DNA of 64,000 nucleotides from an uncultured delta proteobacterium (lineage in GTDB: Bacteria; Desulfobacterota; Binatia; UBA9968), in assembly GCA_963840855.1 (NCBI GenBank), contig CAWJBB010000050.1, forward strand, positions 123,071 through 187,070, written 5' to 3'. The notes below the pieces were generated by a model, which was not told the origin of the DNA, did not search any database, and saw only the letters and a program-made list of their open reading frames with translations. Positions 3,399-50,232 of this stretch are shown here, piece by piece. The first letter of the stretch is position 1. Each line of letters starts with the position of its first letter. The translations under genes were made by a program, and so were the position numbers.

Positions 3399-3460
3399 CG
3401 AAACAGCGTCGACAGGGCAGAAGCGAGCGCCGCGGGCACGGCCCTGATCCGTCGATAAAG

Positions 3461-3570
3461 GGCGCTTGCTTCGTTGTCACGTCGGACTCGCATCCTCACG
3501 TACTGCCGATGTACGCTCCGGTGCGAGCCCTCGCTCCGCCTCGCACCGACCGCCTCTCGACGGCCAGGTT
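3461..3570. repeat. Possible degenerate MITE/REP-like element
   Basis: Intergenic ...cgttg...tcctcacgtactg...gtacgctccgg...ctcgc... pattern with internal palindrome gtac-tgccgat-gtac; single copy in window. Confidence 0.35.
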
Positions 3571-3620
3571 ACTCAGATAGATAGGACCTTACACACGGAT
3601 TATGGGCACGAACAAATTGC

Positions 3621-3649
3621 TTGACATGGAAAAACTCGGTTGTTAGAGT
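3621..3649 (+). promoter_or_regulatory. Sigma70-type promoter of the radical SAM gene
   Basis: TTGACA-N17-TAGAGT with TG extension, 35 nt upstream of ATG 3685. Confidence 0.65.
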
Positions 3650-3684
3650 CACTAAACTCAAACCGCCTGCTTCATTTATAAAAG

Positions 3685-5940
3685 ATGCTCGGCCAAGTTA
3701 CAAGCAATCATCGCGTCGCCGCGGACGTACCGGCTCATATCGCCGCGCATAAATTTCGCGTCGTTCTGATCAAACCTTCTAAATACGACGACGACGGCTA
3801 CGTCATTCGCTTCTGGAGAGGCGTGCTGCCCAGCAACACGTTGAACGTATTGCATGGTCTCACCGATGACGTGCGCGAGCGCCGGTTCCTAGGCGATCTG
3901 CCCATCGAAGTGACGACCTTCGACGAAACCGCTGAAAAAGTTCCCGTCAAGAAGATACTCCGCTGGGGCCGCGAGGCCGGCACCAAACTCCTGGTTTGTA
4001 TGGTCGGAGTGCAGACCAACCAGTTCCCCCGCGCCCTCGACATGGCGCGCATTTTCCGCGCCGCGGGCATCACCGTTATCATGGGCGGCTTTCATACCAG
4101 CGGCACCATCAATATGCTGGGGGAGCAGGAGCCGGATATTCAGGAACTGGTCCGTGAATCCATTTGCGTGGTTTCCGGCGAAGTCGAAGGTAAATGGGAG
4201 ATGATCCTGTCCGATTTTCTCCACGGCCGGTTGCGACCGATTTACAGCTTCGCCCAGGACTTGCAGAGCCTGGTGGACATTGGCGACGCGCCGCTGCCGA
4301 AAACCAGTCCGAAGACCATGGAGCATTTCGCCCACCCGGCGTGGGGCACCGCCGATACTTCGCGCGGCTGCCCCTTCGCATGCACGTTCTGCACGATCAT
4401 AAACGTGCAGGGGCGCAAGATGCGTGAGCGCAGCCCGGAAAGCATCGCCGCGATGATGCGCCGGAACTACCTGGCCAGCGGCATCACTTTTTATTTTTTC
4501 ACTGACGACAATTTCGCGCGCAAGAAACTCTGGCGCGAGACTTTCGAAGAGATCATCAAGCTGCGCGAGGAAGGCATCAAGATTACCTTCATGATGCAGG
4601 TGGATCTGGCGCGCAAGCCCAAGGACTTCGTCAGGCTGGCGGCCAAGGCCGGCTGCACACAGGTCTTCATCGGCATGGAAAGCGTCAATCCGCAGAACCT
4701 GAAAGCCGAAGGCAAGCAGCAGAACCACGTCGAAGAGTACCGCGCGATCATTAAGGAATGGCACGACGCGGGCGTGGTCGTGCACGCGGGCTACATCATC
4801 GGTTTGCCCTGGGACTCCAAGGAGCAGGTGCCCCAAGATATCCAATTTCTCATCAATGAAGTCGGGCCGGATCAGGCTTCGTTCTTCATGTTAACCCCGC
4901 TGCCGGGGTCCCATGACCATCGTGAGATGAGAAACCGCGGCGAATGGATGGACCCGGATTTCAATAAACGCGACTCCTTTCACGCCACCATCGAACACCC
5001 GCGCATGAGCGCCGAGGAATGGACCGAGGCTTACGAAACTGCCTGGAAGACTTTCTACAGCAAAGAGAACATGATTCGGGTCCTGTCACTTTGGAAAGAT
5101 CATCCGCGCAACTATTGGAACCTGATGTCGATCTTTTTCTGGTACAAAAACGCCGCATTGATTGAGAAGCAGCATCCCATGGTGGCCGGCTTCTTCCGCC
5201 TCAAGGAACGCAAAGCGCGGCGCCCCGGATACGCCGTCGATTCTCTGGCGGTTCATATCTGGCGGCGCGCCGGGGAAATCTCGCAGCTGATAGTCACCTG
5301 GGCCAAGTTCCTCAAGGAGATGGAAGAGGTCTGGCTCCAGACGCGCAAAAGGAGCGAAACCGAGGAGCGCTGGCTGGCCCAGCTGCAAGGGTTGCAAACG
5401 GACGTCTCACAGGCGCTCAGGATCGGCGAGCTGCAGAAAATCTATGCCAACGCCAAAGAATCGCTGTCGGAACGGGCCAACACCCTGCTGGAACCGCTGG
5501 ACGAACTCGCATCAAAGATCATTTTCAACCGCGGCGATCTCAATCGTCTCTTGAAGCAATGGGAAGGATTACAGGGCCACATCCAGGAACTGCGGACGTG
5601 GGAAACCGAAACCGCCCGGCGCTGGCTCGATGAAATGCACGATACGTTGGCCCATGTTCGGTTCGGCGATCGGCTGCAAGAGTGGCAAGACTCTTATTCT
5701 CGTCTGCGCGACTCCTTGCCCCCGAAGTTTCAACTACAATGGCTCAGATTCGACGCGATCAACAACCGCGTCTTTTATTCCCGCCAGGATCTGCAACGCC
5801 TCTGGGCCCAGACCATTACCGATCTGCGCCGCATGAACCTATGGCAGATTCGTCCGTGGAAGGTTACCCGCGCGGTGGTCAAGGACTTTATCCTGACGAC
5901 AAGGTTCGCCTTTACTTTCAAGGAACTTTCCAAAGAGTAA
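3685..5940 (+). CDS. B12-binding-domain-type radical SAM protein with long helical C-terminal extension
   Basis: SRGCPFACTFC (CxxxCxxC), FTDDNF, GMES, YIIGLP motifs; N-terminal domain with VIMGGFH. Confidence 0.85.
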   Translation: MLGQVTSNHRVAADVPAHIAAHKFRVVLIKPSKYDDDGYVIRFWRGVLPSNTLNVLHGLTDDVRERRFLGDLPIEVTTFDETAEKVPVKKILRWGREAGTKLLVCMVGVQTNQFPRALDMARIFRAAGITVIMGGFHTSGTINMLGEQEPDIQELVRESICVVSGEVEGKWEMILSDFLHGRLRPIYSFAQDLQSLVDIGDAPLPKTSPKTMEHFAHPAWGTADTSRGCPFACTFCTIINVQGRKMRERSPESIAAMMRRNYLASGITFYFFTDDNFARKKLWRETFEEIIKLREEGIKITFMMQVDLARKPKDFVRLAAKAGCTQVFIGMESVNPQNLKAEGKQQNHVEEYRAIIKEWHDAGVVVHAGYIIGLPWDSKEQVPQDIQFLINEVGPDQASFFMLTPLPGSHDHREMRNRGEWMDPDFNKRDSFHATIEHPRMSAEEWTEAYETAWKTFYSKENMIRVLSLWKDHPRNYWNLMSIFFWYKNAALIEKQHPMVAGFFRLKERKARRPGYAVDSLAVHIWRRAGEISQLIVTWAKFLKEMEEVWLQTRKRSETEERWLAQLQGLQTDVSQALRIGELQKIYANAKESLSERANTLLEPLDELASKIIFNRGDLNRLLKQWEGLQGHIQELRTWETETARRWLDEMHDTLAHVRFGDRLQEWQDSYSRLRDSLPPKFQLQWLRFDAINNRVFYSRQDLQRLWAQTITDLRRMNLWQIRPWKVTRAVVKDFILTTRFAFTFKELSKE

Positions 5941-22407: not shown

Positions 22408-22530
22408 TTGCTACTTGCTTGGGGAGGCGGCGGAGCGCGAGTCACTCGCGCGAAGACTGACACATCGTCCAGCGACGACTAACCTTCTGGCGATACGATG
22501 CCGTTCGGGCGAATCTCGCCGCGCTCTCGC

Positions 22531-25326
22531 ATGAAAAAGAAGCTTGTCTATCTGTTCGTCTTCGCCACACTCGTTCTTCTGGCTGCGTACCCGTTTCTGG
22601 AAGACACTGAACTGGCCAGTTGCCTGGCATATTTCAGCGGCGGAGTTCGCGACGTCGCAGTGGAAAGATCCGAACGCTTCCTCGGCAAAGTTCACCAAGA
22701 CACCATCCGTTGCCGCGGCGGAAACGATGCCGTCCCGTGGCGCGCCACGCCGTGGCTCGACTGGCAACGCTACTGGGGCGCGGGCGACGCCGACAGCAAA
22801 TACACCGGACTCCTGAGCGGTCTCGGCTTTCTTAGTCCCAATCATAGAGGTATTGGAGGCGCGCTACTCGACCTTGAATACCAGCGCATGGAGCTGCTCA
22901 AATTCAATCTTTTCGACAACAGCGGCACGTTCGAGGATTACGTTCGAAAGGGACAAAGCGACGGCAAGCTGGAACGAATCTGGCCGCAGTTCCGGCTGCC
23001 CAAAAATCATGCGTTCTACGCCAAGATCGGCGGCGATGGCGCGCAGAAATGTTCCGGCGAACTGATTCGTTTTCGCACTCTCGACGGCATCTGCAACGAC
23101 ATCATGAACCCGCTCATGGGCGCCACGGACCAACCCTTCGCCCGCAACGTCGACTTTTACAACACGTTTCCGGAACTGAGCACAAAAGACCTCGTAAAAA
23201 ACCGCCATGGCGATCGAATCGGCTTGCTCAAACCTGATCCTCAAGTTATCAGCAGAAAACTGTTTACCCGGACTCAATCAGTCCCCGAACAGTGCAATGC
23301 CGGCCAAGGGTTAGCCAACGATTCCACCGAAGCTCATTGCGATTATCAAAAAGCCCCGCATTTGAATGTCCTGGCGGCTTTCTGGATTCAATTCATAACC
23401 CATGACTGGTTCTCGCACTTGGACGAAGGCGAAAACCGGCCTGAACTGATGCCGATGGGTTGCGAGAATATGCGAATGAACGGCTTGGACCAGCCGCTGT
23501 CCTCGGATGAGATCGCCAGGTTAGGTTGCCGCCGCGGCGATCGCATCGACCAAGCCATCATGACCGAGGACGATGCGCCGAAAACCTTCAAACTTGGTGA
23601 CAAAGAATATCTCTCCCGCGCCCATAAGACGACGCCTAACAAAGTCACCGCGTGGTGGGACGCATCGCAGATTTACGGTTACGACGACAGATCGCGACGC
23701 CGCGTCAAGCGCGATCCGCGTGACCGCGCCAAACTACTGCTCGAAATCGTGCCGGAGCGGCGACAAGAACGCATGGGGTACCTACCCATGCTGCGGCCGC
23801 CGGACCCAATGAATCCGCAGTGGGCGGGACAGGAGGGCGTGGCCTTTCCGGACAATTGGAACATCGGTCTGAGTTTTTTTCACAACCTGTTTGCGCGGGA
23901 GCATAATCTATTCGTCGATAATTTTCGCGAGACCGCCGCGCGCACACCTGATGAAGATTCAGGGCTGCGCAATCCGGCGCGGTTGGATCAGACGATTCGA
24001 TATAGGGACGTCAGCGACGATGAACTCTTCGAAGTCGGGCGTCTCGTCATCGCCGCGGAGATCGCCAAGATCCACACCATCGAATGGACGACACAGCTCC
24101 TCTACAACGACCCGCTCTATCGGGCCATGAATGCCAACTGGTCCGGGCTCCTGAAAAAACACCCTCTGGTCAGTGCGGCTCTAGAACAAGTCGTGCAACG
24201 GTTCGCCAATTCAGAAAATGGCCGGAAGTCCCCCGAGTGGTTCTCCGCTTTCGCCGCAGGCCCCGGCATCTTCGGTCTTGCCAACAAAGGGCCCGACTTC
24301 AATGGTGGAGTGCATCATTTTGGCTCGCCTTTTAATTTTCCAGAAGAGTTTATCAATGCCTACCGGTTACATCCGATGGTCCCCGATCTCATCGAGTATC
24401 GCGACCTACTGAGCGATTCGAATGCTATTAAATTCAAGATTCCGGTGGTGAACACCGTGCGCGGCGACGCAACGCGGGCAATGCGACGGAATGGAATAGC
24501 AAATTGGGCAGTGTCGCTGGGACGCCAGCGGATGGGCAAACTTACTGTCCAGAACCAACCTCTTTTTTTGCAAAACTTGCAGATGCCGCGGCTAAAAAGC
24601 GCGACTGGCAAAATCGATGTCTTGGCGTTGGATATCATTCGCGACCGCGAGCGCGGCATTCCACGCTACAATGAGTTTCGCCGCCAATATGGACTCAAGC
24701 AGCTGACGAGCTTCGATGAGTTCATCGATCCGCGGTTACCGCAAGGCTCAGCCGAGCGCAGGAGACAAGAAAATATCGTAAAGCTGCTGCGGGAGGTCTA
24801 TGGACAGCATCGCTGCGACAAGACGAAAATCATCACCCAAGCGCAGAAAAACTCCGACAGAATCGATATCGACGACTGCCTGGGTCGACTGCATGGGAGC
24901 GTGGTGGATAATATTGAAGATGTGGACGCATTAGTCGGTTGGCTCGCGGAATTCGTCCGGCCCCACGGTTTCGCCATCTCCGAAACGCAATTCCAGGTAT
25001 TTATCCTGAATGCCTCACGCCGGCTTTTCAGCGACCGTTTTTTGACCTCGAGCTTTCGTCCCGAGTTTTATTCCCATCTCGGCGTAAACTGGGTTAACAA
25101 CAACGGCCCGGAGGGCAAGATTATGGAGAAAGGCAAACCCAACGGTCACGAGATGGAGGTTTCGCCGCTAAAACGGGTATTGCTTAGAACAGTCCCAGAG
25201 CTCCGCGCTGAACTAGAACCCGTGATCAATGTGTTTGATCCCTGGGCGCGCGATCGCGGCGAATATTATTCTCTCCAGTGGAAGCCGCGCCCAGGCGCGG
25301 AATCCGACGAAGCCTTCAAAAAATGA
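22531..25326 (+). CDS. Animal-type heme peroxidase / fatty-acid alpha-dioxygenase-like protein with N-terminal membrane anchor
   Basis: FWIQFITHDW, WWDASQIYG, FAREHN, AKIHTIEWT, EEFINAYRLHP, DRERGIPRYNEFRR, ASRRLFSDRF. Confidence 0.88.
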   Translation: MKKKLVYLFVFATLVLLAAYPFLEDTELASCLAYFSGGVRDVAVERSERFLGKVHQDTIRCRGGNDAVPWRATPWLDWQRYWGAGDADSKYTGLLSGLGFLSPNHRGIGGALLDLEYQRMELLKFNLFDNSGTFEDYVRKGQSDGKLERIWPQFRLPKNHAFYAKIGGDGAQKCSGELIRFRTLDGICNDIMNPLMGATDQPFARNVDFYNTFPELSTKDLVKNRHGDRIGLLKPDPQVISRKLFTRTQSVPEQCNAGQGLANDSTEAHCDYQKAPHLNVLAAFWIQFITHDWFSHLDEGENRPELMPMGCENMRMNGLDQPLSSDEIARLGCRRGDRIDQAIMTEDDAPKTFKLGDKEYLSRAHKTTPNKVTAWWDASQIYGYDDRSRRRVKRDPRDRAKLLLEIVPERRQERMGYLPMLRPPDPMNPQWAGQEGVAFPDNWNIGLSFFHNLFAREHNLFVDNFRETAARTPDEDSGLRNPARLDQTIRYRDVSDDELFEVGRLVIAAEIAKIHTIEWTTQLLYNDPLYRAMNANWSGLLKKHPLVSAALEQVVQRFANSENGRKSPEWFSAFAAGPGIFGLANKGPDFNGGVHHFGSPFNFPEEFINAYRLHPMVPDLIEYRDLLSDSNAIKFKIPVVNTVRGDATRAMRRNGIANWAVSLGRQRMGKLTVQNQPLFLQNLQMPRLKSATGKIDVLALDIIRDRERGIPRYNEFRRQYGLKQLTSFDEFIDPRLPQGSAERRRQENIVKLLREVYGQHRCDKTKIITQAQKNSDRIDIDDCLGRLHGSVVDNIEDVDALVGWLAEFVRPHGFAISETQFQVFILNASRRLFSDRFLTSSFRPEFYSHLGVNWVNNNGPEGKIMEKGKPNGHEMEVSPLKRVLLRTVPELRAELEPVINVFDPWARDRGEYYSLQWKPRPGAESDEAFKK

Positions 25327-40586: not shown

Positions 40587-41636
40587 ATGGCTTTACACTA
40601 TGGAGTCTTGCGCGGCCGCGTGGACATTTTCAAACGCGAAGATGATCTCAACACGCCGCATTTGCAAATAAAGGTCGTCGACGGCCACAACGAGGCATGG
40701 CGCATTGCCGTCAACGTATTGTCCGGCGACCAATCACGAGTGGTCTTTCACCGCATCGACCCGCTGCAAAGCCATCCTGTGTTGGCCGGACTCGCTCAAC
40801 TTGCGAGCGGTTTCACCGCGATCCCAGCAACAAACCGCGCCGCGCCGAGTGCTTTGGATTATTTCCGCGCGCCGTTGTTTGACTGGCCCACCGGCGTGGC
40901 CGTCCCGTCGACCGGGCCGGGCGCCAACGACGATCTGCAAGATATGCTGGTGACTTATCTCACACAGCTGCGCGATCAGAACGGCGAGATCTTCGCCTTC
41001 GGCGCCAAGTTTCCCGAACCCGGGGAGGCGCCGAGCCCAAGGCCCATCGACAATCAATTCAAGACCAAACAAGGCATCCATGACATCCACATGAACCAGG
41101 GTAATCCGGCGGGACCTTTCGCCAAGGATAATGGCGTATATCAAGACGGCGGATTGATTCTGAGTTTTCCAAATCGTCATATGGGTTTGTTCCTGCGGTT
41201 TCAAACTCAGTGGTTACCGACGGATGACGCGACGGGTTACCGGTTGGCCAACGCCCAAGCCATCCCACCGGGAGGAACTCCGCCAGTCGTTCCAGGGCTC
41301 GTCGGGGATCCCGACATCTATATCGAGCGCGCCCTGGTAAATCCCGCCGGCGACGATGTCGGCAAGGAAGCCGTGGTCCTGGGCAACGCTACCACTGAAG
41401 TGGTGAATATCAGCGGTTGGCGGATCGTCGACAAAAACGATAATTTCGAAACGCTTCAGGGCACCTTGGCCCCGGGCGAATCGCTGCGTGTCCTGCTCAC
41501 CGGCAACGGCGCGCAACTCGGCAATAACGGCGGCACAATTTCTCTGATGGACCAGACCGGCACGCGAGTGCACTCGGTCAGCTATGCCAAAGACGATATC
41601 GGCAAACAAAGCCGCTACATCAGGTTCATTACGTAA
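40587..41636 (+). CDS. YukJ/DUF2278 family protein with C-terminal lamin-tail-like domain
   Basis: YGVLRG, PHLQI, RIAVNVLS, GIHDIHMNQGN, DNGVYQDGG; ALVNPAGDD...QLGNNGGTISL. Confidence 0.85.
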   Translation: MALHYGVLRGRVDIFKREDDLNTPHLQIKVVDGHNEAWRIAVNVLSGDQSRVVFHRIDPLQSHPVLAGLAQLASGFTAIPATNRAAPSALDYFRAPLFDWPTGVAVPSTGPGANDDLQDMLVTYLTQLRDQNGEIFAFGAKFPEPGEAPSPRPIDNQFKTKQGIHDIHMNQGNPAGPFAKDNGVYQDGGLILSFPNRHMGLFLRFQTQWLPTDDATGYRLANAQAIPPGGTPPVVPGLVGDPDIYIERALVNPAGDDVGKEAVVLGNATTEVVNISGWRIVDKNDNFETLQGTLAPGESLRVLLTGNGAQLGNNGGTISLMDQTGTRVHSVSYAKDDIGKQSRYIRFIT

Positions 41637-41658
41637 GCAGATCAAAGAGGAGACGATT

Positions 41659-42802
41659 ATGTCGAAACATCTGGTGATCGATGCCGACGGCCATTGTAAC
41701 GAGCCGGACAGCGGTCTGGCGAAATTTATGCCCAAAGAGATAGCGCATCTCGCGCCGAATCGAGTGACCGATAGCTCAGGCTATACGCATCTGATGATCG
41801 AAGGCCGCCTGGCGGCAAGGCGGCGTTGGGGCGGCGGCGCGGACCGGAGCGCTGTGTTCGCCAACCACATCGAGCGCAGCCGCCCGGGCATGACCGACGC
41901 GGTCAAACGGTTGCCCGACATGGACGAGGAAGGCATCGACGTGGCGGTCATCTTCGGGACCGGTATCGCTCTGATGGTCAACGGCATGGCCGACAAACCG
42001 CTGGCGGCCGCTGTTTGCCACGCGGTGAACCGCTGGCTCGTGGAAGAATATCTCGCGGTCGACCCCAAACGGCTCAAGGGCGTCGGCTTGATTCCGGTGC
42101 AGGACCCGCCGGCGGCGGCGAAAGAGTTGGAGTTTCTTGGCGAAGCATCGAAGCATCGTCAGCGCCATGCTGCCGACCAATGTTTATGGCATCAATTTGG
42201 GCCACCGCATGTTTGATCCGGTTTACGCCGCGGCCGAGGAGATCGGCATGCCGCTTTCGGTGCATCCGCAGACCGAGCATGACGGCCAATACGGCGTCTG
42301 GGGCGTCATGGGCGCCGGCAGCGAGCGCATGGAGAAGTACAGCTACGTGCACATGACGTCGTTTCCGTTCGAACTGATGATCGCGCTCATGCATATGATC
42401 GGCGAAGGCGTGTTCGACCGCTACCCAAAGCTCAAAGTCGGATTCATGGAAGGCGCCTGCGGCTGGGTCCCCTTCTGGTCGGAGCGCCTCGACGAGCACT
42501 ACGAGAAATTGCGCCCGCAGTGGCCGCTGCTCAAGCGCCAGCCGTCGGAAATCATCCGCAGCCCGCAAGTCTGCTTTACCTGCGAGCCGGAAGAGTCGAT
42601 CTTGCCCTACGTCCTCGACACAATTGGCATAACCCAGGTTATGTACGCCTCCGACTACCGCCATTGGGACTCGGAATTTCCCAATTCCGTGCATGAAGTG
42701 GAGAAGATCGAAGGCATGAACGACGACAAGCTGCGCCACGTTCTCGGTGCCAACGCCCTGAGCTTCTTCGGCTTGAAGCCCGACGATCTGCCGGCGCGTT
42801 AA
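41659..42802 (+). CDS. Amidohydrolase family protein (frameshift near 42135)
   Basis: IDADGH, DMDEEGID, SVHP, GVFDRYPKLKVGFMEG, YASDYRHWD split over two overlapping ORFs. Confidence 0.88.
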
Positions 42803-42839: not shown

Positions 42840-43880
42840 TTAGTCTTCTACCACCGACACCGCCGCTTCGACGCCTTTCTGTTTAAGGATTTCCTTATAC
42901 TCCCGGTGGATCTCCGCCGGCTCCTCGTCCATCGGGATCATTGTCCAGAGCGGGTTGCGGAAACGGTCGTGGCTGTATTTTGGGCTGTCGCCGCGCACGG
43001 CGAAGTGGCGCATCGTGCTCTTGCCGGTGTTAAAGTGGCCATGCCACATGAGATCGTCCGGCGAATAAACCGTGCCGGTCTTGAACTCATGGCGCGTGCG
43101 CTCTTCGCCGTCTTTCCACAACACCACATAGCCCTCACCCTGGGTAACAATGATCACCGCGCCCGGCCCGTGGCGGTGAAACGTACTGCGACAACCCGGC
43201 GGGAATTCAGACACATGGCAACCATAGGTCGTATCCGCCAGGGTATAACGCATATGCTTTACGCCCTTCCCCTTCATCGGGAAATCGTCGAGGGAAAATT
43301 GGTTGACGTCGGGCACAAGATTGGTTTCCCAATAGCGGTCGGTCACATGCTTGTTGTAGCGCAGAAATTCGTCGCCAGCGGGAAAGCGATCGCGAAAGTT
43401 GAAAGGGTTACGGAAAATAAAATCCTCGTTGTGAAAGATATTGATCATGCGCGGCAGCGTGGTACCGGCAAATAGGCGCACGGGTTCGTCGCGCGAGCCG
43501 TTGAAGTGCTGGTAGGACGAATTCAGCGGGATCGCAAATACCGCCCCCACTCCCCACTCGAAGGTGACCTTGGGGGCGCCGTCCTGCCAGACGGCAGTCG
43601 CGCCCCGCCCCTTGGCAACATAGATAATCTCTTCGAAAAGATGGCGCTGGGGCAATGTCTCACTGCCCGCCGGAATTTCGCAAACATAGGCGTCGGTCTG
43701 TTGCTGTTGCGAAAGATTCAAAAAACATCCCCGCGCGCCCATTCGCTCCCAATGCGCTAACTCCAGCGTAAGGACGTCGCTGACAACGTTGCCTTTGACC
43801 ACCGGAATCCCTTCCTTGGCTTGCAACCGGTCGTAGGGCGTCGGCCCGAAATCGAGATGCTCGCGAAACGGCAACAGCAT
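42840..43880 (-). CDS. Bicupin protein (gentisate dioxygenase-like cupin family)
   Basis: QRHLFEEIIYV...YQHFNG and FHRHGPG...WHGHFN cupin motifs. Confidence 0.85.
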   Translation of the reverse strand: MLLPFREHLDFGPTPYDRLQAKEGIPVVKGNVVSDVLTLELAHWERMGARGCFLNLSQQQQTDAYVCEIPAGSETLPQRHLFEEIIYVAKGRGATAVWQDGAPKVTFEWGVGAVFAIPLNSSYQHFNGSRDEPVRLFAGTTLPRMINIFHNEDFIFRNPFNFRDRFPAGDEFLRYNKHVTDRYWETNLVPDVNQFSLDDFPMKGKGVKHMRYTLADTTYGCHVSEFPPGCRSTFHRHGPGAVIIVTQGEGYVVLWKDGEERTRHEFKTGTVYSPDDLMWHGHFNTGKSTMRHFAVRGDSPKYSHDRFRNPLWTMIPMDEEPAEIHREYKEILKQKGVEAAVSVVED

Positions 43881-44084
43881 AGCTCGGTGCTCCTTAGGAA
43901 TGCGGGCGGCTGCTTAACGGTAATGCCATCCTTACAGTTCATAATTCATTTAGGCGGCTTTGTCATCGGTTATCGGCCAAGAAGCAGCGTCCCGCGCCAC
44001 GATGACACCCGGGCAATAAAGGAGTCATGCAACGAGCTATAGTAGTTTTCGAGAGATTCGAAGGAAAAGTAGCGCGCGGGCCGC

Positions 44085-44181
44085 CGTTCAAAGTTCAAGG
44101 CTTGCCCTGAGTCCATCGAAAGGGTTCAAAGTTTCGGATTGAGAGTCCTGACCTTGAACCTGGAACATTGAACCTTGAACT
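44085..44181. repeat. GTTCAAN element with inserted CTTGCCCTGAG...CGAAAGG REP-like unit
   Basis: gttcaaa-gttcaag-[gcttgccctgagtccatcgaaagg]-gttcaaa-gtttcggatt ... ttgaacc-tggaaca-ttgaacc-ttgaact. Confidence 0.85.
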
Positions 44182-44213
44182 AGAATTCACCTTGAAGGTG
44201 TGAATTCTTTGGA

Positions 44214-44562
44214 TCAGTATTCCGTTGGGCGCGGCTGCTGGGTCTGCTGGCGATTGCGTTCAATGGTGCGCTGGTTTTGCTGAATTTGCTGCTGATTAGC
44301 CTCGGACTGCTCCTGGCCCTGCATATAGTCGCCCACCAGCGCGCCGGCGCCCAGTCCTAATGCGCCGCCGATGGCAGCTCCGACCCCGGGACGTCCCATC
44401 GTAGCACCGACGATACCACCCGCCGCCGCACCGCCGACAGCGCCGATGCCGGCGCCCTTTTCCCTGGTGGTCAGATCCCCGCCTGCACAGCCGCCCAGGC
44501 TGAGCGCAAATAAGCCCAGCAGAGATAATCCGATTGGAATAATTTTTTGCGATTTTCGTCAT
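44214..44562 (-). CDS. Glycine-zipper lipoprotein (frameshift near 44500)
   Basis: Signal peptide then GCAGG DLTTREKGAGIGAVGGAAAGGIVG...GAAIGGALGLGAGALVGD, Gln-rich tail. Confidence 0.75.
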
Positions 44563-44625
44563 AGCCTTCTCGTCTCCCACTAAATGTTCAAATGAAGCGT
44601 TAGTGCTGCTCGGGGCTATTTTATG

Positions 44626-44641
44626 AGCAACGCCAATGCCA
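44626..44641 (-). promoter_or_regulatory. Sigma54 (-24/-12) promoter candidate for the glycine-zipper gene
   Basis: Minus strand TGGCAT-TGGCG-TTGCT matches TGGCAC-N5-TTGCW, ~64 nt upstream of ATG. Confidence 0.6.
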
Positions 44642-44792
44642 GGTCATTCTTTGGCATTTTCGAAGACTTTCAGGCCATCGAAGTGTGATTCAGGATGCTC
44701 ACTATTGTCGGAATAGGACGGATCGCAGGCCAGCCGGCACGGCTGTGCGCGGCGCTTCGATTCCTCCCTGAGGACTTGAAGCTGTCTTGGTT

Positions 44793-45455
44793 TCAGTGGC
44801 CGTGAGATTCCAGGAGGGACATGGCTGCGCGGCAGCACAGTGCGTCCTGTTCGGCGCGGCTCGCGCCGGCCACGCCGACGCCGCCAACGATCACTACACC
44901 GTCGAGGATCGGGATGCCGCCACCCGCGGGCATGATTCGGCCGCGATGTGAAATCGCCAAGCTGCGCAGCCAGGGTTCCTTCGCTAGGGCCACCAACTCC
45001 GTTGTGGCCATGTGAAAGGCAGCGGCCGTATAAGCTTTGTTAAATGCCAGCTCCACTGACCTGGCCTCGGCCCCGTCCATGCGTCCGACAGCGATAGGCG
45101 CCCCTGCCTCATCCACGACCACGACGCTTACCTTTAGGCCCATTAGCTCGGCATATTCGTGGGCCGAATGGATCATCGCCCACGCCGTGGCAAATGACAC
45201 CGGCCCCGGCGCGGCTTTGTGCTTGCGGAAAAAGGCGGCGTTGACTTCGATCGAATCTCTATGTTCAGCGGGAATGTCGACGTCTTTGAAGATCGCGTCC
45301 ACCGGACATACGATCTCGCACTGCTCACAATCGATACAAACTTCCGGATCGATGTAAAACTGCGGCGCTCCGGGCGTGGTATGGATACATGCCACCGGGC
45401 AGACATCGACGCAGGCGCCGTCGTTGGTGCATAAACTGGTGATGATGTAGGGCAT
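44793..45455 (-). CDS. Ferredoxin (two-cluster, FdxA-like) fused to a GlcG/HbpS heme/cobalamin-binding domain
   Basis: CTNDGACVDVCPVACIH...CIDCEQCEIVCPVDAI then VSVVVVDEAG...RMDGA...AFNKAYTA...GGGIPI...GGVGVAG. Confidence 0.88.
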   Translation of the reverse strand: MPYIITSLCTNDGACVDVCPVACIHTTPGAPQFYIDPEVCIDCEQCEIVCPVDAIFKDVDIPAEHRDSIEVNAAFFRKHKAAPGPVSFATAWAMIHSAHEYAELMGLKVSVVVVDEAGAPIAVGRMDGAEARSVELAFNKAYTAAAFHMATTELVALAKEPWLRSLAISHRGRIMPAGGGIPILDGVVIVGGVGVAGASRAEQDALCCRAAMSLLESHGH

Positions 45456-45477
45456 TCAGCTTCCTTTTATGCAAAAA

Positions 45478-45507
45478 CGCTTTGAACGACTGGAACGGTT
45501 TTGAACT
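45478..45507. repeat. Half copy of the GTTCAA 9-nt-period repeat
   Basis: tttgaacgac-tggaacggtt-ttgaact inside the operon. Confidence 0.55.
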
Positions 45508-45525
45508 CCGCGTAGGTACGCAGCG

Positions 45526-46104
45526 CTAACCGTCCGCCGCCAGCGGTAGATCCGTGCGAATGACATTTGCCACATGCACGTTGCTGCCGAATTTTTCCGT
45601 CACTAATCGTCCCTTCGCGTTGAGACTCCCTAGACCTGCCGCGGCGGCTAGCTTCTCAGCATCAGGGTCCGGCGCGGCGGTCGCGCGAAAACCCAATTCT
45701 CTGATCCATGCGCTCAGAACAAAACTGATGAATAGCCCATTTTGCACCGGCACCTGGCCGCCGACGCCCGGTGCCTCGCGCGGGTCATAGTCGGCGCGCA
45801 CCGCACAGATGACGGCGAAGGGGTATAGCTCCCCGCTTTTTGCGTCCTTTGAACTCAGCTTAACGATGCCCACCATCTCGGCGCCAAAGTACTGGGCCAT
45901 CCCCTTGACGTGGCTCGACGTAATTTCAGGGGTGTGCAGCTCTGTTTTGGTCGGAAAAACATTGCCCTCGGGCGCGTTACGGATCATCTCCGTTACCATA
46001 TTGGTAAGGTCCGCGGGAGGAGTATTGATGAAAATATCCCAAAAGGGATCGTCCTTGTGAGAGCCCTTCCCGATCCAGGGAATTTTCCATGGGCCAAATC
46101 GCAC
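45526..46104 (-). CDS. Reductive-dehalogenase-like cobalamin-domain protein lacking FeS motifs
   Basis: HVKGMAQYFGAEMVGI, WIRELGFRA, AAAAGLGSL...VIRTDLPL, ends before any Cys cluster; probable GTG start 46104. Confidence 0.75.
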   Translation of the reverse strand: MRFGPWKIPWIGKGSHKDDPFWDIFINTPPADLTNMVTEMIRNAPEGNVFPTKTELHTPEITSSHVKGMAQYFGAEMVGIVKLSSKDAKSGELYPFAVICAVRADYDPREAPGVGGQVPVQNGLFISFVLSAWIRELGFRATAAPDPDAEKLAAAAGLGSLNAKGRLVTEKFGSNVHVANVIRTDLPLAADG

Positions 46105-46109
46105 GGCCT

Positions 46110-47441
46110 CTAGTCCCGTTTGACAAATCGGTTGGTGTTCTCTTTCAACGGGGCGTAATAGCCCACGTTCCCGGCCATGTCTCCCGAATGGCCCTTGCCT
46201 TCGTGCGACGCCGTGCAGCCGGCCACCGTGCATGCCTGATCTCCGGGTTTGATGCCGGAGTCGTAGTTCAGCCAGCGCACGCGACTGCTGCGCGTGACGC
46301 CCCAGAACCGGTCATCGATCCATTTGAGCGCGCGCACGAGCAATGGCCGCGCGGGAATGGGGCAGGTATGAAGAGTCCAAGTAGCGAGGCTGTGCCACCA
46401 GACGTTAGGTTTGGTGAATGGGCATACGGCAGCGCAGGTGAGGCAGCTGCCCCAGTAATCGTGCACGTAGGGACGCAGCTTGTAACAAGTTAGCCAGTTG
46501 ATCTTGTATTTTTCGATGCCGTTATGGACCACCTTGTCGCCGAACGGAATGCTGTTCGTGGGACAAGTGTTGGCGCATTTTCGGCAAATCTTGCAAAAGT
46601 CCTCAACACCGATATCGACGGGCGCGTCCGCCACCAGCGGCAGGTCGGTCAAGATCGGGTCGGGCATGTGGATACGGGCGCCAAAATTTTTGTTGATCAC
46701 GAGCCCGTTTCTGCCCAGCTCGCCGATGCCTCCGGCTACTCCGGCGGCTTGGGGAGTGACCACCCCTCGGAGCGCCGTGTATCCTAGTTCTTTGATGTAG
46801 CCCTCGAGGGCCTTCAGCATAAGCACGCCTTTCATTTGCGAGATATGGTACGCGGCGTCGCCGACGTGGTGGCGGTGCGCTTGCAGTTTGTTGTAATCCC
46901 ACGCTGTCGTGGCTTGGATGATATAGGGAAATTTCCGTACCAATTCCTCGGGAGAATCTTGCTGGTACGCGTCTTCCGCCGTCCCATCTTGCACATAGCG
47001 GCTGCCGGCGTACAAAAATGACGGATGCGCGTTGGCAATGCCGACGACATCGGCTCCCATATAGTGCGCAACCGCCTTGATGTGGCGGGTCATCGCCGCG
47101 GGATCGTCGACCGAGACTCGATTCGGGTTGACCTTTCCCTTGCTCGACCGGTTGATCACATTGGCCAAGAAATGTCGCCGATCGGCGAAATGATTCGGCG
47201 CCGATACCCGAGTCAATGGATCATTAGAGACAGTGTTCCGATACCAGTTGAAAAGCGGTTTCCCCAGTTCGCCGCGCTGATTTTTTGGATGGGGCGACTG
47301 GTTCATGTCCACGTTGACATGGGGTCCGACGAAACGGACCGATCGCCCAAGATAAGGCGGTGGCGGAATGCCGGCTTGACTACCGTTGGTGCCATTAGTG
47401 CCATTCAGTGGTTTGGTTTCTTTCGTCCCATTTACAGCCAT
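46110..47441 (-). CDS. Reductive dehalogenase (RdhA/QueG superfamily)-like protein, no TAT signal
   Basis: HIKAVAHYMGADVVGI, YIKELGYTA, GIGELGRNGLVI...ILTDLPL, CKICRKCANTCP and CLTCAAVCPF. Confidence 0.88.
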   Translation of the reverse strand: MAVNGTKETKPLNGTNGTNGSQAGIPPPPYLGRSVRFVGPHVNVDMNQSPHPKNQRGELGKPLFNWYRNTVSNDPLTRVSAPNHFADRRHFLANVINRSSKGKVNPNRVSVDDPAAMTRHIKAVAHYMGADVVGIANAHPSFLYAGSRYVQDGTAEDAYQQDSPEELVRKFPYIIQATTAWDYNKLQAHRHHVGDAAYHISQMKGVLMLKALEGYIKELGYTALRGVVTPQAAGVAGGIGELGRNGLVINKNFGARIHMPDPILTDLPLVADAPVDIGVEDFCKICRKCANTCPTNSIPFGDKVVHNGIEKYKINWLTCYKLRPYVHDYWGSCLTCAAVCPFTKPNVWWHSLATWTLHTCPIPARPLLVRALKWIDDRFWGVTRSSRVRWLNYDSGIKPGDQACTVAGCTASHEGKGHSGDMAGNVGYYAPLKENTNRFVKRD

Positions 47442-47515
47442 AACAATGCGTCCTTTCTCAATTGCACAGGGTTAAACAGTCATAGGTTGAACTTTGAAAT
47501 TTGAACCGCCCCATA

Positions 47516-47914
47516 TCACGCATATGACGCCAACGCCACTTCAGCGCAGCGTTGATCCTGGTCGTCAGTGCCCCCCGCTACCGCAATAGCGCCGACTACG
47601 CTGCCACCCTCGACGATGGGCAACGCGCCTCCACCGGGCATAATGCGGCCATTGCTCGACACCACCAGGCTTTGAAACCACGACTGGCCCGCCACACCCG
47701 ACAAATCCTTGGTCGCCTGTTGAAAGTTCGCCGCCGTGTACGCCTTATTAAGCGCGATTTCTACAGTGATGGGCCGGGCCCTGTCCATGCGCCCCAGCGC
47801 GATCATACGACCGCTCGGATCTACCACCACTGCCGTCACCGCAATATCCAACTGCGCCGCCTGCACATGAGCTTTGCGCACCATTTCGATCGCCTTTTCT
47901 CCCGGGATAGCCAT
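47516..47914 (-). CDS. GlcG/HbpS family heme/cobalamin-binding protein
   Basis: VTAVVVDPSG...RMDRA...ALNKAYTA...GGGALPI...GAIAVAGG. Confidence 0.9.
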   Translation of the reverse strand: MAIPGEKAIEMVRKAHVQAAQLDIAVTAVVVDPSGRMIALGRMDRARPITVEIALNKAYTAANFQQATKDLSGVAGQSWFQSLVVSSNGRIMPGGGALPIVEGGSVVGAIAVAGGTDDQDQRCAEVALASYA

Positions 47915-48102
47915 GTTTCTTTGAAGTCCTCCTCCACATCGATCTACGATCTCTACTTTAGCAGATACTGCCCTCTGTTAGTCAAGCGCTTTATCGAACG
48001 CGTACTCATGTCCCCGCACCGGGCTTGCGCCTATTGCATCAGCGATTGCGCCTGCTCCACGATAGATGATAGAAATGCAAAAATATACAGGAGGTGATTT
48101 GT

Positions 48103-48663
48103 ATGAGGCTATTTTCTTACGGACCTTGACCCTACGCGCACAGGACAAGGCTTGTCCTCGCGGAAAAGCGGATTTCTCATGACCTCATCGAGTGCGATCT
48201 CAAAAATAAATCGAAGGAGTTGCTGGAACTCAACCCCTATGGCAAAGTCCCGGTGCTGGTGGACGGCGCTGCGGTAGTCTATGAGTCGGCGATCATCAAC
48301 GAGTATCTCGAAGAAAAATATCCAGAGGTGCGGCTCATGCCCAAAGATCCGACGCAGCGCTCGCGTGCGCGAATCTGGATCGATTACGCGAACACGCGCT
48401 TGCAGCGCGCCGGCGGTAACATCGCCCATGATTACCAGGTCGAGAAGTCAAAAGAGGAGTTGAAACAATACCTCGTCACACTGGACCAGGAAATGCGTGA
48501 CCGCGAATACATCGCCGGCGATTATTCGCTCGCGGATATCACCTACATCCCGTTCTTCACCCGGCTCGCCCGCTACCAGGCAACCATCGACGATAGCGTG
48601 CCCAATGTGAAGGCGTGGATGGAGCGGCTCCTGGCCAGGCCCACGGTGAGGGCGACGCCGTAA
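48103..48663 (+). CDS. Glutathione S-transferase family protein, probable selenoprotein (in-frame TGA at codon 9)
   Basis: AGGAGG RBS, ATG 48103, MRLFSYGP[TGA]PYAHRTRLVLAEK...LNPYGKVPVL...ESAIINEYL...YSLADI, in frame with ORF 48220-48663. Confidence 0.85.
48135..48162 (+). promoter_or_regulatory. Bacterial SECIS-like hairpin
   Basis: CGCG-cac-AGGACAA-ggc-TTGTCCT-CGCG starting a few nt after TGA 48127-48129; G-containing apical loop ~19 nt downstream of the TGA. Confidence 0.55.
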
Positions 48664-48677
48664 GCCGGTCGGAATCC

Positions 48678-48757
48678 GGTTCAAGGTTCAACGCGTTGAG
48701 TCTGCGCTTTCTCGCAAATCGCGAAACATTGAACTTTGAACCTTGAACTTTGAACGG
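48678..48757. repeat. GTTCAAN heptamer inverted-repeat element
   Basis: ggttcaag-gttcaac ... ttgaact-ttgaacc-ttgaact-ttgaacg between convergent genes. Confidence 0.85.
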
Positions 48758-48768
48758 CGCGCTAAGCG

Positions 48769-50232
48769 TTACAGCGTTTTCAGATACTCGATCAAGGCGT
48801 TTTTCTCTGCGACAGGCAGTGTCGCGCCGAATTCATGCCCCTGGTTGCCGCTGGCGCGCTCGCGCACGTCGAACTTCGTCCCGACCTTTTCCGCCTCCGG
48901 GCCCTGTGTGACAAAACCCACGTCCGTCGGGTCGTAAACGTCGTAGCCCCGGTAAAAGATCTTGGGGCGCTCTGCCACGGGCTTGAGCAGATCGCGCACG
49001 GTCGGCACCGAGCCGTTATGCAGATAAGGCGCCCGCAACCAGATGCCGTCGAGGAACGCCGCAATGTATCCGCTCGGCTCGATTTCCACGAGACCCTTCC
49101 GTTCGATGCCGAAGCCGCGCACCACTTTGTTCGATTCGATGGCTGCCTGCTTGCTCCAGGTGCCAAGGCGCTCGCGGTCGGTGCCGACCTCGTCCACGGG
49201 CACCCGCGTTCCGGTGCGCTCGCTCGCATGGCACCTCGCGCAGTTGCGCTCGAAGACATCCTTGCCTGTTTTAGCTAGAGCTTCGTCCACCGGAAACGGA
49301 TATTTAGGGGCGGAAATTTCGCCGAGATATTTCTCGAGCCACGCCACCTGTTCGAGAAAATCCTCCCTGCTATGCGGCTCGGCGCCAAGCAGTCCGAGCG
49401 CGGAATCGATAATCACCGAGCGCGCGTCGTGGCTATCGCCGGCGAGATTCATGAGCATGCCTTTTTCCGGTTTGTACTTCTTGAGGTTCCAGACCGACGG
49501 CATGTCCGTCGGGCCGATGCTGTTGTCCATGGGAACGCGGAGCAGGAAATACTTGGTCAAATTCATGGCATCATCGCGGCCCCGGCCCCAAAGTGGAAAA
49601 TCCGCGCGATAGACCCACTTGAACTGTTCCTCCCGTTCAAGCAAGCGCTTCTTGGTTATCGGAATGAGGAGATAACGATAAATCAGCCGATCGATCAATG
49701 ACAGCTTGGTGTGCCGGTCGATCTCGCCAAGGATCTCGTCGGGGTTAAACTTTGGGTCCTTCGCGCAATCGACCACAAAGCGAAAAAACGCCTGGAGGTT
49801 GAGTGTGTGGGTAGGGCCCGCGGGCACGAAGGTCGGGGAATCATTGGGGGCCTTGCGGTAGCTCGCCGTATGGCACGATGCGCAGTTGTTGGCCACGCGC
49901 GGAAAGCCGATAACTTTCTTGGTAAACCCTATTGGGAGTTCCTGTCCCTGTTCCGACATCACTCCCAAGGAAGCGTAGCCGCCGGGTCCGGGCAGTTTGT
50001 CCGGAAAAAGGCGCGGCAGCGCATACCATATCCAGTACGGGACGCCCGCGTCATGCTCTGCGCCGATGGAACCGTACTTGAAGCGCATTTCAGGCGTGGA
50101 CGTGACCCATCCAGGCTGCGGTTCCTCGCGGAAGAATTTATACCACCCGACGACGCCTCCGACGGCAACCAGCAAGACTATGAGGAGCAAACAGATTTTC
50201 CACCAGGATCCCTTTTTCGGCGCGTTTGCCAT
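48769..50232 (-). CDS. RoxA-like di-heme cytochrome c, membrane anchored
   Basis: N-terminal TM, FKYGSIG, CASCH, CARCH, LDGIWLRAPYLHNGSVPT, GNQGHEFG, LIEYLKTL. Confidence 0.88.
   Translation of the reverse strand: MANAPKKGSWWKICLLLIVLLVAVGGVVGWYKFFREEPQPGWVTSTPEMRFKYGSIGAEHDAGVPYWIWYALPRLFPDKLPGPGGYASLGVMSEQGQELPIGFTKKVIGFPRVANNCASCHTASYRKAPNDSPTFVPAGPTHTLNLQAFFRFVVDCAKDPKFNPDEILGEIDRHTKLSLIDRLIYRYLLIPITKKRLLEREEQFKWVYRADFPLWGRGRDDAMNLTKYFLLRVPMDNSIGPTDMPSVWNLKKYKPEKGMLMNLAGDSHDARSVIIDSALGLLGAEPHSREDFLEQVAWLEKYLGEISAPKYPFPVDEALAKTGKDVFERNCARCHASERTGTRVPVDEVGTDRERLGTWSKQAAIESNKVVRGFGIERKGLVEIEPSGYIAAFLDGIWLRAPYLHNGSVPTVRDLLKPVAERPKIFYRGYDVYDPTDVGFVTQGPEAEKVGTKFDVRERASGNQGHEFGATLPVAEKNALIEYLKTL

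Follow-up and report, generated by a model that had tools for sequence, protein, structure and literature searches.

In a 64,000-nucleotide stretch of DNA from an uncultured delta proteobacterium (Binatia; contig CAWJBB010000050.1), which is called the window in the following, we analyzed a cassette of four genes on the minus strand. In 5'→3' order they encode a stand-alone GlcG/HbpS-like protein (GlcG), a protein related to reductive dehalogenases (RdhA), a shorter paralog of the latter that ends before the iron–sulfur (FeS) domain (RdhS), and a fusion of a ferredoxin with a second GlcG/HbpS-like domain (Fdx-GlcG). A preceding interpretation made from the nucleotide letters without database searches (the sequence-only reading) had described four tightly spaced genes of the same orientation, with GlcG/HbpS domains at both ends of the operon and one of them fused to a ferredoxin. 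This description was borne out, since the coordinates are those of the list of open reading frames (ORFs), both terminal genes match PF03928 and the last one carries a Fer4 dicluster. Alignment data indicate that RdhA founds a separate clade of the reductive dehalogenase (RDH) superfamily, that the canonical Tyr–Lys/Arg proton-donor dyad is replaced by Gln202/His258 in this clade, and that RdhS is translationally coupled to RdhA. The cassette is composed of the following genes and domains:

47516..47914, minus strand: GlcG/HbpS-like protein, stand-alone, 132 amino acids (PF03928, E 1.2e-27)
46110..47441, minus strand: RdhA-like, predicted corrinoid/2x[4Fe-4S] reductase, 443 amino acids (TIGR02486, 153.6 bits)
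45526..46104, minus strand: RdhS, FeS-less paralog of the RdhA cobalamin core, 192 amino acids (BLASTP to RdhA, E 3e-17)
46102..46112, minus strand: coupling junction with the RdhA stop TAG (46112-46110) and the RdhS start GTG (46104-46102), 5 nucleotides apart
44793..45455, minus strand: putative 7Fe-ferredoxin–GlcG fusion (Fdx-GlcG), 220 amino acids (Fer4 dicluster and PF03928)
45216..45455, minus strand: ferredoxin domain of Fdx-GlcG, residues 1-80 (1bc6, E 4.2e-19)
44820..45194, minus strand: GlcG/HbpS-like domain of Fdx-GlcG, residues 88-212 (PF03928, E 2.1e-29)

The intergenic gaps measured 74, 5, and 70 nucleotides, and the second value refers to a corrected start of RdhS. The longest possible third ORF (46233..45526) encodes 235 amino acids, but we placed the start at GTG 46104 and not at the upstream ATG, because the resulting form of 192 amino acids matches the cluster representative P0122 exactly, because the best 120 relatives are 187-209 amino acids long and because conservation begins at this position. 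Promoter and terminator scans yielded no signal beyond the shuffled expectation.

To define the family of RdhA, we compared it with profile models, with solved structures and with its relatives. Its core aligned with NpRdhA and PceA, which were also found in the Protein Data Bank (PDB) with E-values of 1e-30 and 9e-29, respectively, and the GxGExGRxG and TDLPL motifs were retained. The Glu and the Arg of the former motif were present in all 46 clade members and in 73 and 81, respectively, of the 82 other RDH representatives. QueG was a distant match in the PDB (3e-9), and the QueG model TIGR00276 scored 50 bits at a cut-off of 200. One of the relatives, P0242, reached 160.6 bits with the RDH model TIGR02486. 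An exhaustive search gave 2212 hits at E ≤ 1e-3, 65 of them at E ≤ 1e-30, and among the nearest representatives drawn from it the RDH score exceeded the QueG score in 89 of 89 full-length proteins. Altogether, the relatives of RdhA comprised 640 cluster representatives, and identity ranged from 71 to 96% across the best 120 clusters.

For phylogenetic placement, a quick maximum likelihood tree (LG+G4, 239 core columns) was calculated from 128 sequences, namely the 46 clade members and the 82 other RDH representatives; this tree is unrooted and was built without a QueG outgroup. RdhA of the window, the proteins of the other loci, P0242 and P0244 formed one clade with a branch length of 0.46 and a support of 100 in the Shimodaira–Hasegawa-like approximate likelihood ratio test. 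Its sister was P0249 (39% identical), and the next relatives were at most 36% identical. The NpRdhA orthologs P0325 and P0338 (E 2.6e-195 and 4.6e-149 to 4RAS) were located in another clade. Grouping with bona fide QueG, which would have been fatal to the sequence-only reading, was thus not what we found: the RDH model scored higher than the QueG model (153.6 vs. 50 bits), the protein falls into a well-supported clade of its own and all 89 relatives resemble RDH.

The predicted catalytic and cofactor-binding elements of RdhA map to the following positions:

46836..46901, minus strand: clade-specific predicted active-site stretch W181...H189-R190-H191...D195...Y198-H199...Q202 (alignment columns)
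46668..46670, minus strand: His258, found where the superfamily usually has Arg/Lys (K488 of NpRdhA; alignment columns)
46563..46595, minus strand: first [4Fe-4S] motif, C283-x2-C286-x2-C289-x3-C293-P (Fer4_7, E 1.3e-7)
46419..46487, minus strand: second FeS motif, C319...C333-x2-C336-x3-C340-P, which includes R323 (alignment columns)

Both FeS motifs are strongly conserved. Residues C283, C286, C289, and C293 were invariant in all 128 aligned sequences. In the second motif, C319 was present in 46 of 46 clade rows and C333, C336, and C340 in 45 of 46, and the 82 other representatives contained all four. A further candidate Cys/His site in the C-terminal extension (C360, C404, C409, H413) was discarded; it is invariant in close relatives and is not kept across the wider clade.

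The catalytic Tyr and Arg of PceA are Y246 and R305. When we inspected the corresponding alignment columns, we found Q202 in the Tyr column of RdhA. This column is occupied by Tyr in 73 of the 82 other representatives and in none of the 46 clade members, 34 of which carry Gln and the remainder Leu, Gly, Ser, or other residues. In the column of residue 258, the other representatives have Arg (66/82) or Lys (8/82), whereas the clade has His (44/46) or Asn (2/46) and neither Arg nor Lys. The columns were checked via the NpRdhA ortholog P0325, in which Y472 equals Y426 and K534 equals K488 of NpRdhA. Pairwise HMMER alignment to NpRdhA mis-registers this helix by six residues (RdhA of the window has two GY pairs), but Q202 is the residue indicated both by the 128-row alignment and by the distance from the invariant G220-Y221, and K488 is aligned to H258 in the pairwise alignment, too. 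In NpRdhA, Y426 and K488 form the catalytic proton-donor dyad, the K488Q mutant is inactive and R552 binds the substrate hydroxyl (PMC7565698, available part of the text). R323, which aligns with this R552, was present in 46 of 46 clade members versus 6 of 82 other representatives.

In addition, the clade carries a set of invariant residues that is rare elsewhere in the superfamily: among the 82 other representatives, we counted W181 in 0, H189 in 2, R190 in 4, H191 in 12, D195 in 7, Y198 in 0, and H258 in 0, and the sister protein P0249 does not have this set. Taken together, these alignments indicate that the canonical dyad has been replaced in the cassette clade, the chemistry of which probably differs from that of the characterized dehalogenases. 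The sequence-only reading had left the substrate between an organohalide, an epoxide, and other compounds. Since the canonical Tyr and Arg/Lys are missing, an organohalide is weakened as default substrate. The 702-residue protein P0338, a close relative of NpRdhA, has Gln and Thr in the Y426 and K488 columns, so that the cassette clade is not the only group in which the canonical residues are lost.

The features of all four proteins fit a cytoplasmic location. None of them contains an RR pair in its first 60 residues, and the highest 19-residue hydropathy windows were 0.88 for RdhA, 1.13 for RdhS, 1.52 for GlcG, and 1.81 for Fdx-GlcG, the last of which peaks at residue 180 within the PF03928 match (88-212). 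Neither the flanking ORF list nor the conserved neighbors (searched for small multi-helix genes) included a candidate for an rdhB-like membrane anchor; the sole small membrane-type ORF in the flanks is a Gly-zipper lipoprotein (44214-44558). The sequence-only reading had noted two Cys clusters in the 443-residue protein, the lack of a twin-arginine (TAT) leader and the lack of an adjacent rdhB-like anchor. All these points were confirmed, and its assignment as a cytoplasmic protein fits the absence of a TAT motif and of a membrane segment.

RdhS aligned to residues 73-272 of RdhA (24% identity), and its C-terminus (...TDLPLAADG) is located about 10 residues before the point at which the FeS domain starts in RdhA. 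The earlier statement that the paralog repeats the cobalamin core and ends at TDLPL before the FeS domain therefore stands, but the gene start implied by the ORF list had to be moved as described above. The structural glycines and TDLPL are still present in RdhS, the Glu and the Arg of GxGExGRxG have been lost, and an invariant motif of its own (DP...GxGGQ) is seen; 19 positions were invariant in a 37-row alignment. Across 63 loci, its identity to the window copy varied between 39 and 95% at similar length in nearly all of them. Eight pairwise comparisons gave ratios of nonsynonymous to synonymous substitution rates (dN/dS) of 0.09-0.15 for RdhS and 0.03-0.14 for the other three genes, and these are rough values since dS is close to saturation. 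Relatives of RdhS numbered 1281 at E ≤ 1e-3 when lengths of 105-336 amino acids were searched, and nearly all of them are named "hypothetical protein" and have no Pfam domain. A non-conserved pseudogene, the case in which the sequence-only reading would have failed, does not agree with the dN/dS of about 0.1, the constant length, the sequence conservation and the translational coupling to RdhA.

The structural model of RdhS had a mean predicted local distance difference test (pLDDT) value of 84.3. Foldseek aligned it with the RDH structure 8q4h (E 1e-8) and with NpRdhA (template modeling score 0.66 at 25% identity), and weaker matches were QueG and the CblC/MMACHC structures 5uos (E 4.5e-3) and 5a4r (2.4e-3). 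In hhalign, RdhS matched the catalytic core of an NpRdhA ortholog (residues 349-507, 97.5% probability). We also considered RdhS as an ortholog of the N-terminal vestigial domain of NpRdhA; this possibility was ruled out by the profile match to the catalytic core, and a "split NpRdhA" holds as an analogy only. By these comparisons, RdhS is an independent truncation of the core domain.

Two further observations concern RdhS homologs. At L038:7269-7896 and L047:7327-7916, both from MFD-series assemblies, RdhS is split into two frames, and here a frameshift error is as likely as decay. Moreover, an atlas cluster from Pseudomonadota, with proteins of 213 residues and PF13486 (Dehalogenase) in 17% of them, is RdhS-like by its features (score 0.87). 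Stand-alone FeS-less core domains may thus also accompany other RdhA families.

To explore the relation between RdhA and RdhS, we compared their gene junctions at 63 loci. The RdhS start overlapped the RdhA stop by one nucleotide (TAGTG/TAATG) at 37 loci and followed it directly at 7, and at 55 loci it was located within -3..+6 nucleotides. The relative reading frames of the two genes varied between loci, which argues for two genes with coupled translation and not for one broken gene; from the junctions we conclude that translation of RdhS is coupled to that of RdhA. In PceA, two core domains form a homodimer. When RdhA and RdhS were folded together, the interface score ipSAE was 0.88 in all three runs, and the best of three controls gave 0.00. 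Of 157 solved complexes, 116 attained the mark applied to this score, as did 2 of 215 mismatched pairs; for the present pair these counts hold only roughly, since it was folded from our own alignments. The runs agreed in at least 86% of their contacts, the partners had pLDDT values of at least 85 and the interface comprised 137-147 contacts. It is predicted to join residues 75-128 and 200-219 of RdhA with residues 16-54 and 114-137 of RdhS, which are equivalent elements of both chains, and takes in the RdhA helix that bears the predicted active-site residues. The predicted complex supports binding of RdhS to RdhA without showing it, and lends weight to the earlier suggestion that the enzyme is possibly heteromeric. 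In long cytosolic RdhAs, the fused vestigial domain is said to allow action as monomers (PMC12219181, available part).

The two GlcG/HbpS-like sequences matched PF03928 with 96.9 and 102.6 bits (cut-off 25) over profile positions 4-127 and 3-127 of 128, and they were 46% identical to each other (BLASTP E 2e-29). Of the four genes, that of the stand-alone GlcG shows the strongest conservation (dN/dS 0.03-0.06). Its best PDB match was OrfY 2a2l (2.6e-18), followed by NahX 9jth and the C-terminal PduO domain (5cx7); EfgA (6bws) and HbpS (3fpv) were also found and scored more weakly than these three. NahX was the best match (9jth, 2.6e-17) of the GlcG domain of Fdx-GlcG, and the literature yielded nothing useful on NahX function. 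His16 on the N-terminal helix of the stand-alone GlcG was kept in at least 95% of 60 orthologs. In the alignment to 5cx7, this residue corresponds to Val25 of the PduO domain, a residue of the heme pocket, and not to the ligand His18. [quoted passage not shown] What the sequence-only reading had stated about tetrapyrrole binding by HbpS and about PduO is borne out by this source, with a restriction for cobalamin binding by PduO that is given below.

The ferredoxin domain of Fdx-GlcG was most similar to the 7-Fe ferredoxin 1bc6, with the Cys pattern aligned; among 59 orthologs, conservation was at least 95% for five of its eight Cys and at least 70% for the other three. Against the model NF045480 (FdxA_Actino) it scored 74.9 bits, which is below the cut-off of 125.

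To learn how the cassette is distributed, we evaluated 79 loci from one genome scan. Their labels were Binatota (19), Chloroflexota (18), Rokuibacteriota (7), Thermodesulfobacteriota (7), Myxococcota (5), and Acidobacteriota (2), the rest being single or unassigned, and the gene set was spread over at least 10 named phyla. Counting for each gene only loci with enough flank, we found RdhS in 70 of 73 loci, Fdx-GlcG in 59 of 64, and the upstream GlcG in 59 of 75. At 61 loci the sequence extended far enough to either side; of these, 46 had all four genes in order, 11 had RdhA-RdhS-Fdx-GlcG only, and 4 deviated: L043 is without Fdx-GlcG, L051 has Fdx-GlcG upstream and no RdhS, and at L078 and L079 RdhA is alone. 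Synteny outside the window, on which the earlier interpretation depended, is thus widespread. The flanking genes were not conserved, and the commonest neighbor, an NMT1-like binding protein, was found at 22 of the 79 loci. Since nothing is conserved beyond the four genes, the cassette behaves as an autonomous module, and for the same reason we dropped the attempt to infer the substrate from the neighbors. At some loci the neighborhood includes genes of aromatic catabolism, namely Amidohydro_2 (the window and about 8 loci), UbiD, Rieske/LigXa-like, and HpaB genes; these weakly favor a phenolic substrate and are not conserved. Among PLSDB plasmids and cultured carriers we found only distant RdhAs with at most 31% identity.

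Several single loci deserve description. The RdhAs of L062, L063, and L067, which are labeled Chloroflexota, Eremiobacterota, and Proteobacteria, are near-identical in the tree (branches 0.009-0.12), and this clustering suggests lateral transfer of the cassette or mis-binned contigs. In the Dehalococcoidia metagenome-assembled genome (MAG) with locus L072, a second, divergently oriented RdhA-RdhS pair without an Fdx-GlcG of its own is located at 3373-5211 on the minus strand; its RdhA is in two pieces, and two Rieske/LigXa-like oxygenases flank the pair. L074:115-1401 (plus strand) encodes a further RdhA-like paralog that adjoins a CoA-transferase.

In the window itself, three genes that flank the cassette are each read in two overlapping frames, as after a 1-nucleotide indel, and the four cassette genes are intact. 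The affected genes encode an Amidohydro_2 protein (41584-42802, plus strand; ORFs 41584-42216 and 42137-42802), a glutathione S-transferase (plus strand; N-terminus in the frame 48066-48182, remainder 48130-48663), and the Gly-zipper lipoprotein (44214-44643, minus strand; 44296-44643 and 44214-44558). These may be assembly indel errors or pseudogenes. A 487-residue dihaem cytochrome c (48769-50232, minus strand; RoxA-like, PF21419, E 1e-16) adjoins the cassette, an arrangement that is conserved only at L001 and L003, its closest relatives. At a distance of 20 kb, the window encodes a 942-residue protein of the animal haem peroxidase family (22498-25326, plus strand; PF03098, E 8e-66), which is unusual in bacteria; this family includes halide-oxidizing enzymes. 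A DUF2278–lamin-tail fusion is encoded at 40587-41636 on the plus strand (PF10042, 8e-53; PF00932, 2e-12).

On balance, we lean toward a cytoplasmic corrinoid/FeS heterodimer of RdhA and RdhS that is fed by a GlcG-tethered 7Fe ferredoxin and works with an altered proton relay. In this model, the cassette would be a widely transferred, self-contained four-gene module for a cytoplasmic corrinoid/iron–sulfur reductase of the RDH superfamily. RdhA and RdhS would form a pseudo-symmetric 1:1 heterodimer with one corrinoid and two clusters, in which RdhS would take over the structural role of the second subunit of PceA homodimers or of the fused vestigial domain of NpRdhA by packing on the RdhA helix that holds the active-site residues. 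Electrons would pass from the 7Fe ferredoxin domain of Fdx-GlcG to the clusters of RdhA, and the ferredoxin would be held on a GlcG/HbpS-type oligomer composed of the GlcG domain of the fusion and, in most lineages, the stand-alone GlcG. His16 of the latter is a possible ligand of a tetrapyrrole, which would be heme that serves as redox relay or a corrinoid that is to be loaded. Since the dyad is replaced, the clade has its own residue set and R323 is kept, a small anionic or phenolic substrate and a different proton relay appear most likely; this substrate, which is perhaps halogenated, would be reduced at the cobalt via a His/Tyr/Arg relay. That a corrinoid is bound, that GlcG acts as a chaperone, how the electrons travel and which substrate is converted are points that we infer. 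A bolder version of this scenario comprises a B12/FeS reductase that would carry out neither dehalogenation nor epoxyqueuosine reduction, an active site rich in His, Tyr, and Arg where other enzymes have the Tyr–Lys/Arg dyad, an obligatory heterodimer with a cofactor-less paralog, the first RDH-dedicated GlcG/HbpS module and a ferredoxin on a tetrapyrrole-binding GlcG oligomer. We hold this version only tentatively and consider it doubtful as a whole.

A number of findings weigh against the favored heterodimer model. The TIGR02486 score of RdhA is just below the cut-off of 160.35, PF13486 was not matched at E ≤ 0.01 and the monomer model, built from an alignment of 19 close relatives, had a pLDDT of 41. 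Y198, which precedes position 202 by one helical turn, might serve as proton donor according to the alignment. The outcome of the complex prediction may mirror the likeness to solved RdhA dimers (PceA) or to the internal duplication of NpRdhA, and no natural RdhA–RdhS fusion backs the pairing; the search for longer forms gave a single protein, which is weak evidence. No cobalamin riboswitch or other RNA was detected at E ≤ 1 within 43800-48800, and no B12 genes were found near the cassette. The histidines in the GlcG domain of Fdx-GlcG are not conserved, and the C-terminal PduO domain binds heme tightly and aquo-cobalamin very weakly (PMC4923194, available text). All 79 loci stem from MAGs and no isolate is among these carriers. 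The upstream GlcG is missing at 16 loci, all of which belong to divergent Chloroflexota-type branches (L061, L064-L079), and these loci together with the RdhA-only and rearranged ones imply that the partners are not obligatory everywhere.

We weighed four other explanations against these data. The cassette might encode an ordinary catabolic cytosolic dehalogenase for natural halogenated phenolics or hydroxybenzoates, in which Y198 or H258 donates the proton and the vestigial domain and the reductase are separate genes. NpRdhA and PceA as best solved relatives, RDH as top family, the alignment of R323 with the substrate-hydroxyl ligand R552, the aromatic-catabolism neighbors at some loci and the fact that "simplified cytosolic" RdhA-like proteins of about 395 amino acids are recognized (PMC12219181, available part) would all agree with this view. 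We nevertheless rate it as rather unlikely, since none of the 46 clade members has the Tyr that 73 of the 82 others possess, His or Asn fills the Lys/Arg column, the clade is separate from that of NpRdhA and the neighbors are not conserved. An identity of 71-96% across the best 120 clusters is also unusual for substrate-diverse dehalogenases. Furthermore, exchange of the corresponding Lys in NpRdhA (K488Q) abolishes activity (PMC7565698, available part). We give next to no credence to the view that RdhA is a divergent QueG or that RdhS is a decaying pseudogene: one cluster of RdhA relatives and one of RdhS relatives are named "epoxyqueuosine reductase" at source, but the QueG model stays at 50 of the 200 bits, the PDB match to QueG at 3e-9, all 89 representatives score as RDH, and RdhS has a dN/dS of about 0.1 and 1281 relatives in the length range searched.

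The remaining two explanations concern the partners. RdhS and/or GlcG might be transient maturation factors, that is, CblC-like chaperones for corrinoid processing or loading, and neither stable subunits nor electron carriers. The resemblance of the RdhS model to the B12-trafficking protein CblC/MMACHC, the DP...GxGGQ motif of RdhS and the location of GlcG family members beside B12 enzymes elsewhere (PduO, OrfY with an adenosyltransferase homolog; PMC4923194, available text) point in this direction. However, the CblC matches (E 4.5e-3 and 2.4e-3) are far weaker than those to the RdhA core, RdhS has lost the Glu and the Arg of GxGExGRxG, translational coupling suggests 1:1 synthesis, and the predicted interface is large (137-147 contacts) and confident, so that we regard such a role as distinctly unlikely. 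Alternatively, the GlcG/HbpS proteins might sense small molecules or the redox state, as EfgA does with formaldehyde and HbpS with redox stress, and regulate or protect the enzyme instead of supplying it with electrons. Both proteins were among the PDB matches, EfgA is a DUF336 formaldehyde sensor (PMC8153426, available part) and Binatota have been described as methylotrophs (PMC8262859, available part). [quoted passage not shown]

When soil metagenomes are surveyed, genes of the RDH superfamily are routinely tallied as a potential for organohalide reduction, and the clade described here is abundant (640 RdhA and 1281 RdhS cluster representatives) in dominant uncultured soil phyla (Binatota, Rokuibacteriota, Chloroflexota, Acidobacteriota). 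Since the defining residues of dehalogenase catalysis are missing, this clade may be mislabeled as "reductive dehalogenase". The fixed partnership with two GlcG/HbpS domains provides a genetically clean system for the role of GlcG next to B12 enzymes, a question that has been standing since PduO and OrfY, and the split into a catalytic and a vestigial partner offers a natural test case for the need of RdhA enzymes for a second core domain. If the bolder version given above is correct, the long-unexplained GlcG/DUF336 family would gain a function in B12 enzymology, and the cassette would bring to light a reaction that is widespread among uncultured soil phyla.

The sequence-only reading had not recognized the cassette as a described system, and our full-text literature search found no description either, a provisional result since most subscription journals are outside its reach. 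In this search no paper connected a reductive dehalogenase with GlcG or with Binatia; for combinations with HbpS/DUF336 or with Rokubacteria, none of the hits was specific for such enzymes by its title or abstract. The available part of a Binatota genome survey names only dcmA and dhaA. "Simplified cytosolic" RdhA-like proteins of about 395 amino acids have already been recognized in Chloroflexota and Desulfobacterota (PMC12219181, available part). Like RdhA of the cassette, they are short and cytosolic, lack a fused vestigial domain and occur in the same phyla, but the available text makes no mention of an FeS-less paralog, of GlcG genes, of a ferredoxin–GlcG fusion or of dyad loss.

Compared with solved enzymes, the cassette shares most features with NpRdhA/BhbA (4RAS, 6ZXU), its best solved match. 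Both are cytoplasmic by their features, have neither TAT leader nor RdhB, combine a core of the cobalamin-binding type, which for the cassette is predicted from the alignment, with two [4Fe-4S] motifs, contain a second, non-catalytic copy of the core in the system and keep the Arg aligned with R552. In contrast, the second core of the cassette is a separate, downstream, coupled gene and not an N-terminal fusion, its RdhA comprises 443 amino acids instead of over 650, has neither an NAD(P)H reductase nor a fused vestigial domain, carries Gln and His at the positions of Y426 and K488 and belongs to a different clade. NpRdhA is also not known to have GlcG partners. With respiratory RdhA (PceA; 4UQU, 8Q4H), it shares the superfamily and the FeS motifs, and the predicted RdhA–RdhS pair would mimic the homodimer; it differs in that TAT leader, RdhB anchor and Tyr/Arg dyad are lacking and in the predicted heterodimer with an FeS-less partner. 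[quoted passage not shown] Unlike these systems, the cassette pairs the domain with an enzyme of the RDH superfamily and has one copy fused to a 7Fe ferredoxin, and its conserved His is found at another position of the helix than in PduO (equivalent to Val25 instead of His18). Judged by homology, RdhA of the cassette is thus a member of the RDH superfamily, and judged by the aligned columns, it lacks the catalytic dyad of a bona fide dehalogenase.

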